Shown in pieces: positions 10,621 to 64,000 of a stretch of 64,000 bases of DNA. The stretch's first letter is position 1. Each line of letters starts with the position of its first letter. The position numbers and the translations under genes are program-made. The notes beneath the pieces were generated by a model. It saw nothing but the letters and a program-made list of their open reading frames with translations, searched no databases and had not been told where the DNA came from. This DNA comes from Candidatus Omnitrophota bacterium (GTDB taxonomy: Bacteria; Omnitrophota; Gorgyraeia; Zapsychrales; Fredricksoniimonadaceae), in contig JAGWKL010000003.1 in NCBI GenBank assembly GCA_028865345.1, positions 184 through 64,183 on the forward strand, read 5' to 3'.

Positions 10621-11400
10621 GTGTGGCGCAAAACTTTCAAAAAAGCCGCTTATATCGGCATCGTTGCCGTCCCCTTCCTGATCCTTTTTTTTCACCCGAA
10701 GAATTATAGGGCCGCCGGATTGTTAGACGCTGTTGCCGGGCCTGTGGATGCATGGCAGGGTCCTGTCTTCGAGTTGAAAAAATTGTTTTATTACAGGGAG
10801 ACGTATGATGAGTATGTGTATTTCAAAAGACAAAATGAAGTACTGAAAGCCAGGCTTACCGCGCTGCGGGAGGATGAAGAGGCCCGAAAACGTTATGATA
10901 AAATCCGGGATTTCCGCAATAGTCAAAGTTACGGGTCTATCGTGGCCGATGTCATCGGCCGGGACCCTTCTGATTGGAATGCGTCATTGATCATTGACCG
11001 CGGCCGCGCCGAGGGCCTCAAAGTGGGCCAGCCGGTGGTTAATCCGCTGGGGGTGGTGGGCAGGGTTTTTGAGACGGGCGAGCACACGGCCAAGGTGGTC
11101 TTGCTTTCCGATCCCACCTTTGCCGTTGCCGCGGTGGACCAGCGTTCAAGGGAAAACGGGCTTTTGACCGGCACGCTGGAAGGGAATTTACGCTTTGAAT
11201 ATTTGACGGACAAGGCGGACGTGAAGGTTGGGGATGTGCTGGTGACCTCCGGCTTAAGCACCGCCTTTCCGGAAGGGATATTGATCGGGCGTATTACCAA
11301 TGTGAGCGCCTCGGCCAACGTCCATAGCGTGGATTGCCTGGTAACGCCGGCGGTGGACCTTTCCCAGCTGGAAGAAGTAATTATTATTAAAAAGACATGA
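10621..11400 (+). CDS. mreC: Rod shape-determining protein MreC
   Basis: N-terminal TM segment, a coiled-coil stretch, then the MreC beta-domain region (GLVVGRV... pattern: PLGVVGRVFE). It lies immediately downstream of mreB. Confidence 0.85.
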   Translation: MWRKTFKKAAYIGIVAVPFLILFFHPKNYRAAGLLDAVAGPVDAWQGPVFELKKLFYYRETYDEYVYFKRQNEVLKARLTALREDEEARKRYDKIRDFRNSQSYGSIVADVIGRDPSDWNASLIIDRGRAEGLKVGQPVVNPLGVVGRVFETGEHTAKVVLLSDPTFAVAAVDQRSRENGLLTGTLEGNLRFEYLTDKADVKVGDVLVTSGLSTAFPEGILIGRITNVSASANVHSVDCLVTPAVDLSQLEEVIIIKKT

Positions 11401-11405
11401 ACGCC

Positions 11406-11434
11406 AAAAGGCCCAATTGCTTCGACGTCGAAAA
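11406..11434 (+). repeat. Copy 1 of the dispersed 29-nt motif AAAAGGCCCAATTGCTTCGACGTCGAAAA
   Basis: The motif ends 2 nt before the ATG (11437) of the ABC ATPase gene. It contains the perfect palindrome TTCGACGTCGAA. Confidence 0.8.
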
Positions 11435-11436
11435 CT

Positions 11437-12342
11437 ATGAACGCTATCTGCATAAAGGGTTTGGTCAAGACCTACCGCACCGGCACCCAGGCGCTTAAAG
11501 GGGTCGATTTAAGCATTGCCGACGGAGATTTCTTCGCGCTTCTGGGCGCCAACGGAGCCGGCAAGACCACCATCATCGGGATCTTGACAGGCCTGGTCAC
11601 CAAGACGGGGGGCAAGGTCGAGATCTTCGGCCATGATATCGACACGGATTTTGAAGCGGCCAAAAAATCGATCGGGGTGGTGCCCCAGGAGTTCAATTTC
11701 CACATGTTCGAGCAGGTGCAGGACATCGTGGTCAACCAGGCGGGCTATTTCGGTATCGATCATAAGACCGCCCTGAAGGACTCCCAAGAGATCCTCAAAC
11801 GGGTAGGGCTTTGGGAGAAGCGCAAAGCGATCAGCCGCACGCTCTCCGGAGGCATGAAGCGCAGGCTGATGATCGCCCGCGGCCTCATCCATCATCCCCG
11901 CATGCTGATCCTGGATGAGCCCACCGCCGGGGTCGACGTCGAGCTTCGCCACGGCATGTGGGAATATTTAAGGCAGATCAATGCCGCGGGCACGACCATC
12001 CTGTTGACCACGCATTACCTCGAAGAGGTCGAACAAATGTGCAACAACTGCGCGATTATCAAGGAAGGCGAGATCGTGCTTCTGGACAATGTGCGCCATC
12101 TTCTTACCAAGGTTCCCCAAGACACCTACCGGGTGACCGTCAAGGAAATGCTGTCCCTGGACCAGGTGCGTTCATTTAATCCCGTTAAGATCGACGAGCA
12201 CACCCTGGACATCGAAATCCAAAAGCGCGAAGAACTCAATGAGGTGATCCTGAAACTGGCCCAGAGCGGCTTTGTGATCACGGATTTCCACCCCAAAGGC
12301 AACCGTCTGGAAAAATTGTTCCTGGAGATCGTTCAACGATGA
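11437..12342 (+). CDS. ABC transporter ATP-binding protein (ABC-2 type)
   Basis: Walker A GANGAGKTT, signature LSGGMKRR and Walker B ILDEPT. Confidence 0.9.
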   Translation: MNAICIKGLVKTYRTGTQALKGVDLSIADGDFFALLGANGAGKTTIIGILTGLVTKTGGKVEIFGHDIDTDFEAAKKSIGVVPQEFNFHMFEQVQDIVVNQAGYFGIDHKTALKDSQEILKRVGLWEKRKAISRTLSGGMKRRLMIARGLIHHPRMLILDEPTAGVDVELRHGMWEYLRQINAAGTTILLTTHYLEEVEQMCNNCAIIKEGEIVLLDNVRHLLTKVPQDTYRVTVKEMLSLDQVRSFNPVKIDEHTLDIEIQKREELNEVILKLAQSGFVITDFHPKGNRLEKLFLEIVQR

Positions 12343-14678: not shown

Positions 14679-14707
14679 TTTTACGCAGTCGAAGCAATAG
14701 GGCCTTT
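14679..14707 (-). repeat. Copy 2 (inverted orientation) of the dispersed 29-nt motif
   Basis: The reverse complement reads AAAGGCCCTATTGCTTCGACTGCGTAAAA. The GGCCCnnTTGCTTCGAC core is intact. Confidence 0.65.
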
Positions 14708-14815
14708 GATTGCCGCCCGTCCTTTTAATTCCGCTGATGTTCCGCTTCCGCCACCTTTTTTATATTGTATCCCGATTGGGTTATGCTATACTGTTGAGCA
14801 TCAAAAAGGCCTGTT

Positions 14816-17455: not shown

Positions 17456-17470
17456 TATGATGCAAAAATT

Positions 17471-56053: not shown

Positions 56054-56310
56054 GGTTTATTTTTCTTAATCCACTCAATAATATCCAATGATTCATAAAG
56101 GGCCTTACCGTCAATGACAAGGCAGGGGACCTGGGGCTTGCCGCCGATCGCAACCAGCTCATCGCGCCATGCGGGATTTTCACGGATGTCCTTCATGGGC
56201 ACAACAATGCCTTCTTTATTCAAAAAATCCCTGACCCTCTGGCAATAAGGGCATGCCATAAAATGGTATAAAGTTAAGTCCGACAATATTCTTTGTTTTT
56301 TCGACGTCAT
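56050..56310 (-). CDS. Dithiol glutaredoxin
   Basis: CPYC active site (MACPYCQRV). 86 aa. Confidence 0.8.
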   Translation of the reverse strand: MTSKKQRILSDLTLYHFMACPYCQRVRDFLNKEGIVVPMKDIRENPAWRDELVAIGGKPQVPCLVIDGKALYESLDIIEWIKKNKP

Positions 56311-56328
56311 AAGCGGGTTCCAATTGCG

Positions 56329-57264
56329 TTATTTTAGCAAGTTTTCTACAAAATCAATGATTTTTTCTTCCAGCTTGACGTTGTATAAACGGTTCATTTC
56401 CTGAAGGCAGGTGGGAGAGGTGACGTTGACTTCGATCAGAAAATCACCCAGGATGTCGATCCCAACGAAATAAAGGCCGAGTTCCTGGAGATGTGGCTTA
56501 AGAATGCTGATGATTTTTTTATCGTTGGTGTCGACTGTGGCGGGTTGGGGTGCGCCGCCCGCATAAAAGTTGTTGCGGTGCTCACCTTCTTCATGCAGGC
56601 GCAGCACGGCCCCGAGGACTTCTCCGTCCAGAAGAAGGATGCGTTTATCGCCTTTTTGGGCTTGGGGCACGTATTTCTGGACGATGATGGCCTTGTTGTA
56701 GCGGTCGCTCAGGGTCTCCAGGACGACCTTGGTGTTGGAGTCCCCGTTTTCGATATGAAATACGCCGGCGCCCCCGAATCCGTCGGTGGGCTTGGCGATG
56801 ACATTTTTATGCCTGGCGACAAAATCAAGCAGGTCCTTTTTATCAGAGGAGATGATGGTGGGCGGCGTCAAGTGTTTAAACCGGCTGACCCACACCTTTT
56901 CGTTGACGGTGCGAAGCCCCGCAGGATTGTTGATGACCGCTATATGTTTGGGCAAATGCTCCAGGAGCCATGTGTTCATGATGTATTGCTCATCCAGAGG
57001 CGGGTTGGGGCGGATAAAGACCGCATGAATGTCATCTTGGCTCAATCGTACCGCACGTTCTTCTCGAAACGGCATGTGTGCGATATTCTGGGGGGCGACC
57101 TTGGTGGCATGAAAATACACCTTACCTTCAGCGAAGCCGATGCCGTCTTCAGGCACATGGTAGACGTCGTGGCCGCGGCTATGGGCGCATAACATCATCA
57201 CAAAGGTGGTGTCCGACTCGAAGGAAACCGTTTCCAGAGGGTCCATTAAAAAGACGAATTTCAT
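56329..57264 (-). CDS. gshB: Glutathione synthetase (ATP-grasp)
   Basis: MKFVFLMDPLETV… N-terminus and ATP-grasp fold motifs. It overlaps the upstream gshA-like gene by 4 nt. Confidence 0.8.
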   Translation of the reverse strand: MKFVFLMDPLETVSFESDTTFVMMLCAHSRGHDVYHVPEDGIGFAEGKVYFHATKVAPQNIAHMPFREERAVRLSQDDIHAVFIRPNPPLDEQYIMNTWLLEHLPKHIAVINNPAGLRTVNEKVWVSRFKHLTPPTIISSDKKDLLDFVARHKNVIAKPTDGFGGAGVFHIENGDSNTKVVLETLSDRYNKAIIVQKYVPQAQKGDKRILLLDGEVLGAVLRLHEEGEHRNNFYAGGAPQPATVDTNDKKIISILKPHLQELGLYFVGIDILGDFLIEVNVTSPTCLQEMNRLYNVKLEEKIIDFVENLLK

Positions 57265-58562: not shown

Positions 58563-58636
58563 ATATTTTTCCTGTCATTCCCGGATGCTTTTATCGGGGC
58601 GCCATAGTATAATACTAAATTATGATTAAAGCAAAG

Positions 58637-58665
58637 AAAAGGCCCTGTTGCTTCGACGGCGAAGA
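58637..58665 (+). repeat. Copy 3 of the dispersed 29-nt motif (AAAAGGCCCTGTTGCTTCGACGGCGAAGA)
   Basis: Lies in the divergent gshA / bolA intergenic region. Confidence 0.75.
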
Positions 58666-58726
58666 GTCGCGTGGGGTGATCGAACGCATCCTCGCGCAGG
58701 CATTCGCGCCGGATTCTTTAGAGGTC

Positions 58727-58755
58727 AAAAGGCCCAATTGCTTCGACTTCGAAAG
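58727..58755 (+). repeat. Copy 4 of the dispersed 29-nt motif (AAAAGGCCCAATTGCTTCGACTTCGAAAG)
   Basis: Ends 9 nt before the GTG start of bolA. Its 3' end (CGAAAGGG) doubles as the RBS. Confidence 0.75.
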
Positions 58756-58764
58756 GGTTGGTTT

Positions 58765-59013
58765 GTGATCGGGGCAAAGATTGAGCATATATTAAATGTA
58801 ACTTTTAAGCCAGATTATCTCGAAGTCATAGACGAAAGTTACAAGCATGCCGGACATGCCGGCGCCTCTCAGGGCGGGCATTACCGCATCACCGTCATAT
58901 CGAAAAGTTTCAGGGGCAAGAAACTCCTGGAAGTCCACCGCATGATTTACCGGGCCCTGGAGGCGGTCAAACCTTCCATTCATGCGCTGAGCATCAAGGC
59001 CGGTGCTGCTTAA
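58765..59013 (+). CDS. bolA: BolA/IbaG-family protein
   Basis: ESYKHAGHAG…GGHYRITVISKSFRGKKLLEVHRMIYRALEAVKPSIHALSIKA closely follows the BolA signature. GTG start with RBS AAAGGG. The ORF-track start at 58648 is an upstream extension. Confidence 0.8.
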   Translation: MIGAKIEHILNVTFKPDYLEVIDESYKHAGHAGASQGGHYRITVISKSFRGKKLLEVHRMIYRALEAVKPSIHALSIKAGAA

Positions 59014-59789: not shown

Positions 59790-60517
59790 TATTCTATCCC
59801 CGTGATTTCCAGAAAAACGTCCTGCAGGGACTTGTCCTGCAAAATTTGTTTTTTATCGCCGATGCGCACGATGGTGCCATTATTGATGATGCCGATGGTT
59901 TTGCAAAGCTTTTCTGCTTCTTCCATATAATGGGTGGTCAAAAAGATGGTTTTGCCTTCTTTGTTGAGCTGCAGCAGATAGTCCCAGATCAGGAATTTCA
60001 GTTCCAGGTCGCAGCCGGAGGTCGGCTCGTCGAGGATAAGTATTTCCGGGTCATGGATCAGGGCGCGGCACAACAGCAGGCGTTTTTTCATCCCGCCGGA
60101 CAGGGCCCGGTGTTTGCAGTTGCGTTTCTCGGCAAGGCCGAAACGGTCAAGCAATTCATTGGCCCGGCGTTTGGCTTCCCAGGGGATGATGCCGAAATAT
60201 TCAGCCTGATAAACTAAAAGCTGATAGATGGTCAAAAAAGGATCAAAATTGGATTCCTGGGCGCAGAGGCCGATCAGGCGGCGGCTGTGGAGGTATTCCG
60301 AGGTGACATCGTATCCGAAGACTTTCACCTGGCCGTTTTGATAATTGGAAAGCCCGGTCAGGACATTGATGGTGGTGGTTTTGCCGGCGCCGTTGGGCCC
60401 TAAAAAGGCGAAGAAATCCCCGCGCTTGACCTCGAAAGAAATTTTGTTCAGGGCCTGGAAATTTTCATAAAATTTGGTCAGGGCTTTGATGGAGATGGCC
60501 AGTTCCGAATTACGCAT
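59789..60517 (-). CDS. ABC transporter ATP-binding protein (paralog of 11437..12342)
   Basis: Walker A GPNGAGKTT, signature LSGGMKKR, Walker B ILDEPT. The start was taken at MRNSELAIS (ATG 60515-60517), because the ORF-track extension overlaps the next gene. Confidence 0.85.
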   Translation of the reverse strand: MRNSELAISIKALTKFYENFQALNKISFEVKRGDFFAFLGPNGAGKTTTINVLTGLSNYQNGQVKVFGYDVTSEYLHSRRLIGLCAQESNFDPFLTIYQLLVYQAEYFGIIPWEAKRRANELLDRFGLAEKRNCKHRALSGGMKKRLLLCRALIHDPEILILDEPTSGCDLELKFLIWDYLLQLNKEGKTIFLTTHYMEEAEKLCKTIGIINNGTIVRIGDKKQILQDKSLQDVFLEITGIE

Positions 60518-61895
60518 TTTTTTTCTCCAAAGCGGCTTTTGCTTTTCGGGCGGCGTTGCGGACGATTTCCGGCAAGGCCGGATGGATATAAATGGTGCGC
60601 AGCATATCGTCAAGCGTTGCATTCATATTCATGTACGCGATGATCATGTGGACCATGTCTGAGGCCTCGGGCCCGATGATGTGCCCGCCTAATATCTTGC
60701 GGGTTTTGCGGTCGACCAGGATTTTACAAAAACCATGGTCAGCCAGCAGGGCCATGCCCATGGCCGAGCTTTTGTAAGGATTAAGCCCGACGGCGTAATC
60801 AATGCCTTGGGCCTTCAATTCTTCTTCCGTAGCTCCCACCGAGGCCACCTGTGGATGGGTGAATACCGCGTGAGGCATGGGAGGATAATGGATGGGAGTC
60901 TTCGGCGTACTGCCGAATAAATAGTCAAAAAGGTATTCGCCTTCGAAATTAACGCTGTGGCGGAAGAAATATCTTCCGATGCAGTCTCCAAGGGCGAAGA
61001 CCCCGGGCACGCTCGTTTCCAGGAATTCATTGACCTTGATAAAGTTGCCGGGCAGCAACTCAATGCCCGTATTGATGAGGTCAAGCGTGTCCGCGTTGGA
61101 CGTGATCCCGGACGCCATCAAGAGCGCCTGCGCGCTGACAGCAAGATTTTCCCCGTTTTGGGAATAGTGCACGGTGAAAATGTTGTTATGGTGTTCGACC
61201 TTTGTTACGGCCGCACCCAGGAGGACATCATGATAACGGCTAAAGACTTTCTGGAATTCCGCGGCAATCTCTGCATCTTCTTTGCGTAAAAGTTTCGAGC
61301 GTACCAGGAAGGTCGTCTTGGTGCCCAGGCTGCCGTAAGCGTGCCCTAATTCACAGGCGATGTACCCGCCGCCGATGATGATCATCGACGAAGGCAGGGC
61401 GGTATTGCGCAGCGCCTCGGTGGACGTCATAAAGGGTGTACCGGCCAGGCCCGGAATATGAGCAACGGCAGGGCGCGTGCCCACGGCGACAAAAATTTTG
61501 TCTGCCGTGATTTGTTCGCCGTTGATCTCGATGGTTTTATTGTCAAGGAAGCGGGCCGCGCCTCTGTAAAAACTGATGTTGGGATGCTTGGTATAATTGG
61601 CCTCGATTTTGTCCGAATCCGCGTCCACCGTTGAAGAGATCCGGCTTATAAGTTTGGCAAAATCAACCTGGAATTTCGGATCATTGTGAATATCGAAGCG
61701 GTGCGCTTCCTTGATCTCCGTGGCCACATCCGCGGGGTGGATGAGCATCTTGGAAGGGATGCAGCCGCGGTTGAGGCAGGTGCCGCCCAGGCGGTCCTTT
61801 TCGATGACCGCGACCTTAAGTCCCCTGGAAGCGGCAGGGGACGAGATTTTGGCCCCGCCGCCTGAGCCGATGGTGATAATATCAAACTTTTTCAT
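60510..61895 (-). CDS. FAD-dependent pyridine nucleotide-disulfide oxidoreductase (dihydrolipoyl dehydrogenase / glutathione reductase family)
   Basis: FAD-binding GSGGGA, redox-active disulfide GGTCLNRGCIPSK and the C-terminal HPALPE interface motif. Lpd-like rather than Gor-like by motif, with no E2 partner in the window. Confidence 0.7.
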   Translation of the reverse strand: MKKFDIITIGSGGGAKISSPAASRGLKVAVIEKDRLGGTCLNRGCIPSKMLIHPADVATEIKEAHRFDIHNDPKFQVDFAKLISRISSTVDADSDKIEANYTKHPNISFYRGAARFLDNKTIEINGEQITADKIFVAVGTRPAVAHIPGLAGTPFMTSTEALRNTALPSSMIIIGGGYIACELGHAYGSLGTKTTFLVRSKLLRKEDAEIAAEFQKVFSRYHDVLLGAAVTKVEHHNNIFTVHYSQNGENLAVSAQALLMASGITSNADTLDLINTGIELLPGNFIKVNEFLETSVPGVFALGDCIGRYFFRHSVNFEGEYLFDYLFGSTPKTPIHYPPMPHAVFTHPQVASVGATEEELKAQGIDYAVGLNPYKSSAMGMALLADHGFCKILVDRKTRKILGGHIIGPEASDMVHMIIAYMNMNATLDDMLRTIYIHPALPEIVRNAARKAKAALEKKNA

Positions 61896-63005: not shown

Positions 63006-63133
63006 AAGGAGGGTTATTATAGCTGAATTCCCCGTGGATGCAAATATTGCATGCTCTTGCCTTTTGACGGCTTTCGCCTATAATTAAGCGTCCGTAGCAG
63101 CTCAACTTTACGACGTCGAAAGGACAGGAAATA

Positions 63134-64000
63134 TTGGCTATCGTGTTGGATCCAAGCGAACCCCCGATCAACCGCGGCATAAAGACCGTCGGCATCGGCA
63201 AAAAAGGGAGCAAAAGCCTCACCTTCCAGCTGGCCCTGGAAATAGCCGAGGACTTAAAGTCAGGTAAGGTCAGTGAGGCGGCCAAGGGCGCCTTTTTTGC
63301 CGGCTTATGCGCTAAAGGCATAGGGCCGGATGAAGAAGTTTTGGGCAGGGCTTTTCCCCCCGGCGTTCTGGACGATCCGGCCGAATTATTAAAAACAATC
63401 GCCGCTGACGCTCCGGAATTTGTGCTTTGGATCTGCAGGCAATTGTCGGAAGGTCATACGCTGGATAAGCAAACCGCTTATGATCTGGGAAAATTTTTGT
63501 TTTCCGAAGGGCCCGGCGATGCGGCCCGCGGATGGGTGGCCAGTTTCCTGCGGGTGCGTTACGAAACCGACGACGAATATGAGGGCCTGCTGCAGGCCAT
63601 GGAGGACACTCTCGGGCCCCCATTTAAGGCTCCGGCGCCGGAAGGTGAGCCGGTCATCCAGATTTCAGAACCTTTTGACGGGACGGACCATTCCTATATG
63701 ATCACCCCTTTGATCGGCCGGGCCTTGCAGGCCCAAGCCTATCGGGTGGTGCACCAGGTTGGCCGCAACAGCGGGCCCAAGGCAGAAATGAACTTGTGGG
63801 ACATTGCCCGGGCTTTGGGAACAAGGCCCGCGGCGAGCAATGCAGATTTATCCTCGGCTAAACCCGAATTCGGGTGGTTTTTCCATCAGTCCGTGATGTC
63901 ACAGGCCCTGGACCGCTGGGTGGACCTGCGCCGTCAGATCATCAAGCGGCCGTTTTTGGCCACCCTTGAAAGATTCATCGATCCGTTGAAGGCACAGATT
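63134..64000 (+). CDS. Anthranilate phosphoribosyltransferase-like protein (glycosyltransferase family 3; TrpD/TrpD2-like), 3'-truncated at the window edge
   Basis: Translated by hand, since the frame is open to the window end and so not in the ORF track. N-terminal helical domain (FQLALEIAEDLKSGKVSEAAKGAFFAGLCAKG), DGTDHSYMITPL and KRPFLATLERFIDPL resemble TrpD motifs. The start (TTG 63134 or GTG 63143) is uncertain. A partial copy of the 29-nt motif lies just upstream. Confidence 0.5.
   Translation, partial: MAIVLDPSEPPINRGIKTVGIGKKGSKSLTFQLALEIAEDLKSGKVSEAAKGAFFAGLCAKGIGPDEEVLGRAFPPGVLDDPAELLKTIAADAPEFVLWICRQLSEGHTLDKQTAYDLGKFLFSEGPGDAARGWVASFLRVRYETDDEYEGLLQAMEDTLGPPFKAPAPEGEPVIQISEPFDGTDHSYMITPLIGRALQAQAYRVVHQVGRNSGPKAEMNLWDIARALGTRPAASNADLSSAKPEFGWFFHQSVMSQALDRWVDLRRQIIKRPFLATLERFIDPLKAQI

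Follow-up and report, generated by a model that had tools for sequence, protein, structure and literature searches.

Copies of the motif in the window

The stretch analysed here (the window) comprises 64,000 nucleotides (nt) of contig JAGWKL010000003.1 of a Candidatus (Ca.) Omnitrophota bacterium (GCA_028865345.1), and we were concerned with a dispersed motif of about 30 nt which lies between mreC and an ABC ATPase gene, between the genes of an MscS-like and a PilZ protein, and twice at the 5' end of bolA. The 17-mer GGCCCNNTTGCTTCGAC has four exact matches, at 11410-11426 (+), 14688-14704 (-), 58641-58657 (+) and 58731-58747 (+), and AAAGGCCCNNTTGCTTCGAC is likewise present four times without mismatch. 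Four occurrences of the 15 bases specified by GGCCCNNTTGCTTCGAC in 128 kb (both strands) are far beyond chance, and comparable counts were reached in the shuffled window only when three mismatches were tolerated; the initial annotation, made from the sequence alone, was therefore right to consider the four-copy motif as non-random. An nhmmer profile search of the window recovered the same four copies at 27-40 bits, and neither the 10-mer TTGCTTCGAC nor a fuzzy search of the window gave additional close copies. The first two copies and their flanks are the following (copies 3 and 4 are listed with bolA; a slash in a sequence marks an insertion point or junction):

11397-11406, + strand: left copy of the duplicated target, ATGAACGCCA; it contains the former ABC ATPase start codon, and mreC stops at its TGA
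11407-11436, + strand: element copy 1, 30 nt, AAAGGCCCAATTGCTTCGACGTCGAAAACT, nhmmer 37.7 bits, between the mreC stop and the ABC ATPase start
11437-11446, + strand: right-hand target repeat, ATGAACGCTA, from which the ABC ATPase gene now starts
14679-14707, - strand: element copy 2, nhmmer 33.6 bits, intergenic between the MscS-like gene and the PilZ gene

The proximity of copy 1 to the ATG of the ABC ATPase gene (PF00005) and of copy 4 to the GTG of bolA (PF01722) is confirmed, the former adjoining its ATG directly and the latter stopping 7 nt upstream of the GTG. The motif defines a new mobile repeat family of very small size, from a phylum without cultivated members, and is not a regulatory motif. 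On balance, it is probably the core of a miniature non-autonomous mobile DNA element of Ca. Omnitrophota, in a reading that includes mobilisation as a cassette.

Distribution and sampling

A genome scan for AAAGGCCCNNTTGCTTCGAC restricted to one genome per species gave 24 loci, 19 of which belong to Ca. Omnitrophota or 'uncultured Planctomycetales' metagenome-assembled genomes (MAGs), while the other genome loci look like chance matches within unrelated coding sequence. The metagenome scan gave 118 loci, mostly of Omnitrophota type, and 101 copies were left once duplicates and chance matches had been removed. As retrieval relied on an exact pattern of 18 bases, conservation of the core arises by construction, which is not the case for conservation outside the core. 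The loci, cited below by L numbers, are chiefly short MAG or metagenome contigs; cases with long flank repeats are few (about 12) and the gene calls used to tabulate the position and orientation of copies relative to genes are crude. JAGWOE010000009.1 (GCA_028871075.1) carries the gene of the window's ABC ATPase, and BolA and MreC are named as Candidatus Omnitrophica proteins. A literature search by sequence returned nothing relevant. One of the chance-match contigs, ERZ1036636 (L058:5557-5611, not Omnitrophota), ends in an Illumina Nextera adapter (..GAGATGTGTATAAGAGACAG) and corresponds to assembly contamination.

Orthologous empty and filled sites

Orthologous pairs of empty and filled sites were found at five places. 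The mreC/ABC ATPase junction is empty in L157, where the two genes overlap in ATGA, and in L156, where they are separated by an 8-nt spacer; it is filled in the window, where it reads ...ACATGAACGCCA/element/ATGAACGCTATC. This comparison indicates that copy 1 entered at GCTA/TC, at a depth of three codons in the ABC gene, and that the accompanying 10-nt repeat includes the start codon. The two target repeats match at 9 of 10 bases and their sole difference is at a synonymous third position. The bolA gene is free of the element in L148, L149/L150, L152 and L153/L154 (ATAGTATAAT, 7-8 nt, ATGATTAAAGCAAAGATTGAA), and gene order in L153 is the same as in the window: GshA (-), BolA, ABC-2 (-), ABC_tran (-). 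At the gene of a NUBPL/Mrp-type ATPase, L015 and L045 have the empty site, L075 and L082 the filled one. The dtd-tatD site is empty in L080 and L096, holds in L099 a simple reverse insertion after GTCA without duplication (this copy is now diverged), and in L014 combines the same old copy with a new perfect copy that is accompanied by a 19-codon repeat of the dtd 3' end. Finally, the window itself is the empty allele of two insertions:

17456-17470, no strand: unoccupied site; L034 has here the element and a 62-nt duplicate of the gene 3' end
60500-60525, no strand: unoccupied site at an overlapping stop/start (ATGCGTAA); L070 has two element copies here, at about 60515 of the window

The reverse situation, loss of an old copy, is also visible upstream of the PilZ gene:

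14803-14815, + strand: what deletion has left of an older copy, AAAAAGGCCTGTT, directly before the PilZ start codon (AAAAAGGCCTGTT/ATG)

At the position of this remnant L141 has an intact element, 11 nt after the same TATACT box. Old copies are thus seen to decay or to be deleted, and individual copies are consequently not maintained. Among the explanations proposed in the initial annotation, a small mobile repeat comparable to repetitive extragenic palindromic (REP) sequences is the one borne out, by the empty and filled orthologous sites, by tandem arrays and nested insertions and by the decayed old copies.

Some copies are located in frame inside genes: LpxB (L018, L042), TatD (L080, L099), QueC (L028), BolA (window) and, at its N-terminus, an ABC ATPase (L070). 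The copies are read K-R-P-N-C-F-D, K-A-Q-L-L-R or, reversed, H-D-V-E-A-I-G-P-F. QueC of L028 (2900-2970) has a second, slightly diverged in-frame copy (KAQLPQRRKVAS), and a short duplicated GYDC motif is kept in the protein. Elements were also observed in tRNA genes (L016:4590-4830, L108:1359-1500 and L126); in L016 the 20-nt 5' part of tRNA-Arg is perfectly duplicated and an earlier, unrelated insertion lies further upstream, and in L108 the sequence after the element is a diverged 3' half of a tRNA. We rejected the possibility of assembly chimeras between strains joined at the repeat, as this would require strains whose essential genes are disrupted and as independently assembled sequences, among them an NCBI contig of 77 kb, have the same arrangement.

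Element anatomy and target site

Over the 101 copies the conserved positions extend from -1 to +30, with the form A/AAAGGCCCAATTGCTTCGAC-N-TCGTAARGTT, often followed by GTGTCA. The element measures 30-31 nt, or 37 nt if its GTGTCA tail is counted, and lengths of 42-61 nt occur in older or variant copies; its 5' boundary is invariant and its extent on the 3' side is variable. Variants include a sister family in which AATATTCCC replaces AAAAGGCCC, copies in which the sequence switches to TTTGGCGGTAGTA after TTGCTTCG, and a long form in which 29 extra nt, GAACAACTGTGAGTGTCCGGCATGAGGAC, separate AATTGC from CTTCGAC (L034, L037, L062, L073, L083). The element has no open reading frame (ORF) and no terminal inverted repeats, the best agreement between its first 14 nt and the reverse complement of its last 14 nt being 6 bases. 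Tandem arrays with units of 37-38 nt occur in L006 and L074, and doublets are direct and tandem in L006, L074, L061, L073 and L110; only L034 has an inverted pair.

The element inserts between A and T, best in (GT)GTCA/TT. Indeed, the base before it is A in 89% of copies, preceded leftward by C (66%), T (58%) and G (56%), and T comes next to the right-hand flank repeat in 11 of the 12 long cases. The element's own GTGTCA tail followed by T recreates the target, which explains the tandem and mixed arrays.

The palindromic hairpin reported in the initial annotation is weak. RNA folding of the consensus and of the four copies was no better than that of shuffled sequences (z between -1.0 and +0.6) and gave structures that differ among copies, while DNA folding gave minimum free energies of -1.9 and -1.4 kcal/mol (z +0.17 and +0.48), without a stable hairpin. 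The covariation check of the copies found scattered changes in diverged copies, none of them compensatory. An Rfam scan at gathering thresholds (window and 15 loci) and an E-value scan of the bolA region returned only tRNAs and chance-level matches. The proposed 5' untranslated region (5'-UTR) RNA hairpin has against it the absence of an Rfam match, of significant folding and of compensatory changes, and copies that are antisense, at 3' ends or intragenic. A transcription-factor operator, also proposed, does not fit neighbouring genes that are unrelated and copies that are in some cases intragenic and in others tandem.

The sister family is represented in the window by one copy, and its other members (AATATTYCC...TTCGACGTCGTAAAGTT) are in further loci:

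63104-63135, - strand: sister-subfamily copy, AATATTTCCTGTCCTTTCGACGTCGTAAAGTT, overlapping the predicted TTG start of a TrpD-like gene on the opposite strand

This copy, of which nhmmer matches only the 3' half (63120-63104, E 0.083), had been taken for a partial fifth copy at 63107. It is real, but as a full-length member of the sister subfamily, and its location on the minus strand makes it antisense to the TrpD-like gene. A very weak match to the same subfamily at 56300-56331 (AATATTCTTTGTTTTTTCGACGTCATAAGCGG, 6.5 bits, E about 10) is either a decayed copy or chance.

A second repeat family, (GTGTCA)TTGCGAGGAGC-variable loop-GCGACGAAGCAATCT, directly follows about 40% of copies (L006, L007, L009-L011, L037, L081 and others) and is found reversed between mreC and the ABC ATPase gene in L155 (2078-2235). 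Reverse-complemented, the 3' arm of this repeat gives ATTGCTTCG, a sequence also present in the motif; this family has no Rfam match and is absent from the window.

Flank repeats and the apparent preference for start codons

Flank repeats were defined as a sequence that ends at the 5' boundary of the element and recurs from its 3' boundary, with pairs of flanks from different loci as control. Thirty of the 101 copies exceed the 95th percentile of this control, with repeats of 6 to 185 nt; the repeat at copy 2 of the window is weak (17/27). Repeats that hold gene starts concern the ABC ATPase and BolA (window), AtpE (L004), QueC (L028), an FAD oxidoreductase (L064), Mrp (L075, L082), a response regulator (L090) and tRNA-Arg (L016), and those that hold gene ends concern Dtd (L014), the L034 gene, an lpd-like gene (L070) and a tRNA 3' half (L108). 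In each of these cases one copy of the repeat is continuous with the intact gene and the other is a fragment. Some repeats are identical or nearly so: 20/20 for tRNA-Arg in L016, 77/81 in L004 and 9/10 at copy 1 of the window. In L004 (3930-4300), three tandem units of the element and the atpE 5' end (22 codons) precede the gene of the ATP synthase c subunit; the native Shine-Dalgarno sequence is found in the first unit, and between this unit and the last there are 8 substitutions, of which 7 are synonymous and 1 is at the junction codon (GTG to GTT), and the array is partly masked by N.

According to the initial annotation the motif usually abuts start codons. The pattern search and tabulation over the 101 copies do not support this: copies are mostly intergenic and in both orientations, some being at 3' ends and some intragenic, and although the motif is indeed present in relatives, it has no positional bias toward start codons there. 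Intergenic copies are co-oriented with the gene in 17 cases and anti-oriented in 19 by our crude gene calls, i.e. without sense or 5'-end preference. Orientation relative to local GC skew is 38:46 (p 0.45), GC skew being a noisy proxy on short contigs. The neighbours (MreC/ABC, PilZ, BolA, LpxB, TatD, Dtd, AtpE, QueC, tRNAs) share no function. The targeting of gene 5' ends is only apparent, the real target being A/T in a (G)TCA/T-like context.

The motif nevertheless does abut start codons in a number of cases, because the flank repeat usually rebuilds a gene start or end. The association would also follow from compact genomes with overlapping genes, from the A/T contained in ATG itself, and from the survival of only those insertions that leave a complete gene; likewise, copies located at gene ends owe their persistence to the duplicated gene end next to the element. 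The tail of the element (AAGG, AGGAG or AAAGGG) is found 5-10 nt upstream of many of the rebuilt start codons and, judging from its sequence, can plausibly serve as a ribosome-binding site.

The bolA locus

The most complex arrangement of the window is that of bolA:

58608-58613, + strand: TATAAT, conserved -10 box
58622-58636, + strand: native bolA start, ATGATTAAAGCAAAG (MIKAK), 8 nt after TATAAT; identical to the first codons of the element-free L149 and L153
58637-58678, + strand: element copy 3, old and diverged, 42 nt, in frame (KRPCCFDGEESRGV), 27.3 bits
58679-58727, + strand: displaced native bolA codons 6-21 (IERILAQAFAPDSLEV), ending in GTCA; GC content at third codon positions (GC3) 0.71, host-like
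58728-58764, + strand: element copy 4, perfect consensus, 40.4 bits, with an AAAGGG Shine-Dalgarno-like tail; ends at the bolA GTG
58765-58828, + strand: replacement bolA 5' end, 21 codons, GC 0.37, GC3 0.38, z -2.5; ends GAAGTCA before T

For comparison, GC3 is 0.60-0.71 in the rest of bolA and 0.54-0.75 in other genes. An upstream ORF of 48 codons (58622-58768; MIKAK-KRPCCFDGEESRGV-IERILAQAFAPDSLEV-KRPNCFDFERVGL) reads from the native bolA start through copies 3 and 4 and the displaced fragment, and its TGA overlaps the new GTG (GTGA). It is possible that the new start is reached by termination-reinitiation, i.e. translational coupling. The element-free bolA mRNA is probably leaderless, since its start is only 7-8 nt from the conserved -10 box (ATAGTATAAT). 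The promoter scan of the bolA region gave no full site and no matching -35 box, and the reading of the motif itself as a sigma-54 or sigma-70 promoter was discarded on direct inspection, the spacing being wrong. Immediately before the -10 box, positions 58574-58602 are occupied by a third small hairpin repeat, GTCATTCCCGGATGCTTTTATCGGGG; it is at the same place in L149 and L150, and similar units are found in L037 and L052.

Origin of the flank copies and proposed mechanism

The differences between the two flank copies follow a coding pattern. Mismatches at codon positions 1, 2 and 3 number 42, 28 and 91 (p 1e-9), indels are in frame (9 nt in QueC), the L034 fragment retains a stop codon (TAA vs TAG), and the L070 copies differ by 6 synonymous changes and 1 nonsynonymous change. 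Both copies have thus diverged mostly as working coding sequence, and neutral decay of the displaced fragment is ruled out by the codon-position counts, the in-frame indels and the kept stop codon. In bolA of the window the two copies are 56% identical to each other and each is 70-76% identical to element-free relatives, while the element between them (copy 4) has no mismatch to the consensus.

Further observations concern the source of the 3' copy. In L147, the best matches of the BolA C-terminal part (85%) are proteins with N-termini that resemble the displaced fragment (81%) and not the N-terminus in use (50%), which matches a different clade. In a test over 12 loci, the copy on the 3' side of the element proved AT-rich relative to its locus (mean z -1.3, p 0.0009), and the displaced copy did not (z -0.44, p 0.14). 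GC content steps up exactly at the repeat boundary in bolA of the window and in L014, the latter being a 3'-end case to which start-codon effects cannot apply. Both repeat copies end in GTCA/T (GAR-GTC-A/T) in bolA of two organisms. The foreign N-terminus in L147 and the AT-rich 3' copy favour a cassette, made of the element and a donor gene end, over a simple target duplication. In L075 and L082, two species from the same sample (Ga0209824), the displaced Mrp fragments are identical at 76 of 78 positions, against about 88-92% in flanks and neighbouring genes and 86% in the working copy; this similarity may reflect recent exchange or constraint, the sliding identity profile being high there without being an outlier.

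We propose, tentatively, that the element, of 30-37 nt, moves between Omnitrophota lineages as a self-repairing mini-cassette, which would rebuild genes as chimeras and leave the native end as a fragment. The element would be mobilised from its fixed 5' end, and the process would stop at its own GTGTCA or continue to the next (G)TCA/T-like site nearby. The product would be a small cassette composed of the element and a gene end which, often coming from another lineage, would insert at the same conserved site of the homologous gene; the cassette would then supply the gene end, and the native end would be left as a fragment. A trans-acting HUH-type nickase, IS91-like or IS200-like, would best fit this geometry, as a conjecture.

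Several points weigh against this reading of the mobile element. No transposase, recombinase or integrase cluster was found near the 140 loci (all-against-all BLAST of 1232 ORFs), and phmmer searches of the 1.1 Mb of loci with IS200 and YafM/RAYT (REP-associated tyrosine transposase) queries gave nothing below E 0.09, a weak negative for a Y1 transposase. The element has neither terminal inverted repeats nor a stable hairpin for an HUH enzyme to hold, and its orientation lacks the bias relative to GC skew expected for the IS200/IS605 family. No free cassette, circle or orphan cassette was observed. The short and nearly identical repeats, at copy 1 of the window and tRNA-Arg of L016, fit ordinary target duplication equally well. 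The paired AT-richness test of both copies is marginal (p 0.08), and gene starts are AT-rich anyway. Lastly, the conservation of the core is built in by the retrieval, and the gene calls are crude.

Alternative explanations

A rather unlikely explanation is that the same mobile element moves without any cassette: variable staggered cuts would produce repeats that are identical at birth, and one of them would later undergo allelic replacement. Homologous recombination with element-free alleles would do this, the heteroduplex stopping at the element, so that the displaced fragment stays gene-like. Such cuts have a precedent in IS1549/IS1634, whose direct repeats vary from 8 to 514 bp without a known mechanism (PMC2266710). 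The identical or nearly identical repeats at tRNA-Arg of L016, in L004 and at copy 1 of the window agree with it, and the Mrp fragments shared by L075 and L082 suggest recent exchange. However, this scenario needs recombination across 25-45% divergence and explains neither the AT-richness of the 3' copy rather than of the displaced one, with its step at the repeat boundary, nor the discordant BolA N-terminus of L147. It also has to accommodate an element devoid of the inverted repeats of a DDE-type transposon, and the simple insertion of L099 without any duplication.

We consider as very improbable that the motif is the scar or minimal attachment site of a site-specific recombinase, left by larger integrative elements that carried replacement gene ends and were later deleted. 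The succession of a displaced native end, the element and a replacement end with synonymous differences is a hallmark of integrases that target gene ends, and the tRNA cases (L016, L108, L126) would fit. Yet only 30-42 nt ever separate the repeat copies, integrase genes are not recurrent in the flanks, repeat lengths vary between 0 and 185 nt, dozens of genes without relation to each other contain the sites, and tandem arrays of 37-38 nt exist.

Scarcely credible, lastly, is a conserved cis-regulatory element under selection, 5'-UTR RNA hairpin or operator: the AAGG or AGGAG tail 5-10 nt before many starts, the small palindromes of the core (GGCC, CAATTG, TCGA) and the orthologous in-frame copies of LpxB and TatD, far better conserved than their flanks, would suit it, but it is at odds with the absence of an Rfam family, with folding equal to that of shuffles, with diverged copies lacking compensatory changes, with equally common orientations and copies at 3' ends, in coding regions and in tandem, with the decay or deletion of orthologous copies and with neighbouring genes that have no common function.

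Significance and comparison with known systems

Whatever its mode of mobilisation, the mobile element has consequences for annotation, as a motif with the look of a conserved 5'-UTR signal is here selfish DNA, and as short 'upstream ORFs', odd N-terminal extensions and inserts of 10-14 residues (KRPNCFD...) found in proteins of Omnitrophota are traces of it and do not reflect the biology of the genes concerned. Few elements for which empty and filled sites give direct evidence are as small, and this one shows how insertion can be tolerated where genes touch or overlap, even in essential genes (bolA, atpE, dtd, lpxB, tRNA): it brings or makes the gene end a second time. If the cassette reading is true, the element creates housekeeping genes that are chimeric across lineages, and short pieces of essential genes would cross species; the strategy of integrases would be shrunk to about 100 nt and served by a trans-acting enzyme, and the invariant core of 20 nt would offer a handle for the search of this enzyme and for tracking gene flow in an uncultivated phylum.

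REP sequences are short (about 30-40 nt), non-coding dispersed repeats without internal transposase that are moved by a RAYT (PMC3116915). Like REP/REPIN, the element is non-autonomous and mainly intergenic, forms clusters and tandems and has no transposase inside. It is not a REP of the classical type, as it differs from them by the lack of a stable palindrome, by arrays that are direct and not inverted doublets, by several copies in frame within genes and by flank repeats of up to 185 nt; no RAYT gene was found in the 1.1 Mb of loci. Unlike miniature inverted-repeat transposable elements (MITEs) derived from DDE transposons, it has no terminal inverted repeats and no fixed target-site duplication (none in L099, 6-185 nt elsewhere).

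The insertion of L099 after GTCA without duplication and the A/T rule recall IS200/IS605 elements (PATE), but about a third of copies have flank repeats and, unlike in that family, there is no lagging-strand orientation bias, as far as the noisy GC-skew proxy can tell. One-ended products of IS91 take neighbouring DNA with them and end at GTTC or CTTG, i.e. at a target-like sequence. The fixed 5' end and the variable far end at a target-like (G)TCA before T resemble this one-ended transposition of IS91/ISCR and, to a lesser degree, IS200/IS605 and REP/RAYT; the IS91/ISCR elements are however kilobase-sized and encode an HUH Y2 transposase, whereas ours has 30-37 nt and no recurrent neighbouring gene was seen at its loci. 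Long direct repeats of variable length (here 6-185 nt) are shared with IS1634/IS1549, which are DDE elements of 1.5-2 kb with terminal inverted repeats, unlike the present element with its 30-42 nt, no ORF, no inverted repeats and flank repeats often diverged in a coding pattern.

Integrative elements carrying a replacement gene end are represented by tRNA-targeting islands and by e14 and phage 21 in icd. As with these, the intact gene is rebuilt from sequence borne by the element and the native end is left as a diverged fragment; by contrast, they are kilobase-sized and have an integrase and a fixed attachment site, while the whole insert is here 60-220 nt and many unrelated genes are concerned. 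Elhai et al. are said to have described in 2008 small dispersed repeats (SDR, 21-27 nt) of Nostocaceae that are mobile-like, nested and located within conserved sequence. Our element is like SDR in its very small size, mobile-like behaviour and nesting, and unlike them in sequence and phylum, which are unrelated; we know of no long flank repeats or gene-end replacement for SDR. Compared with REP, MITE and SDR-like repeats, the duplication or replacement of gene ends is an unusual trait, which would be of real interest to specialists of mobile DNA if the cassette is confirmed.

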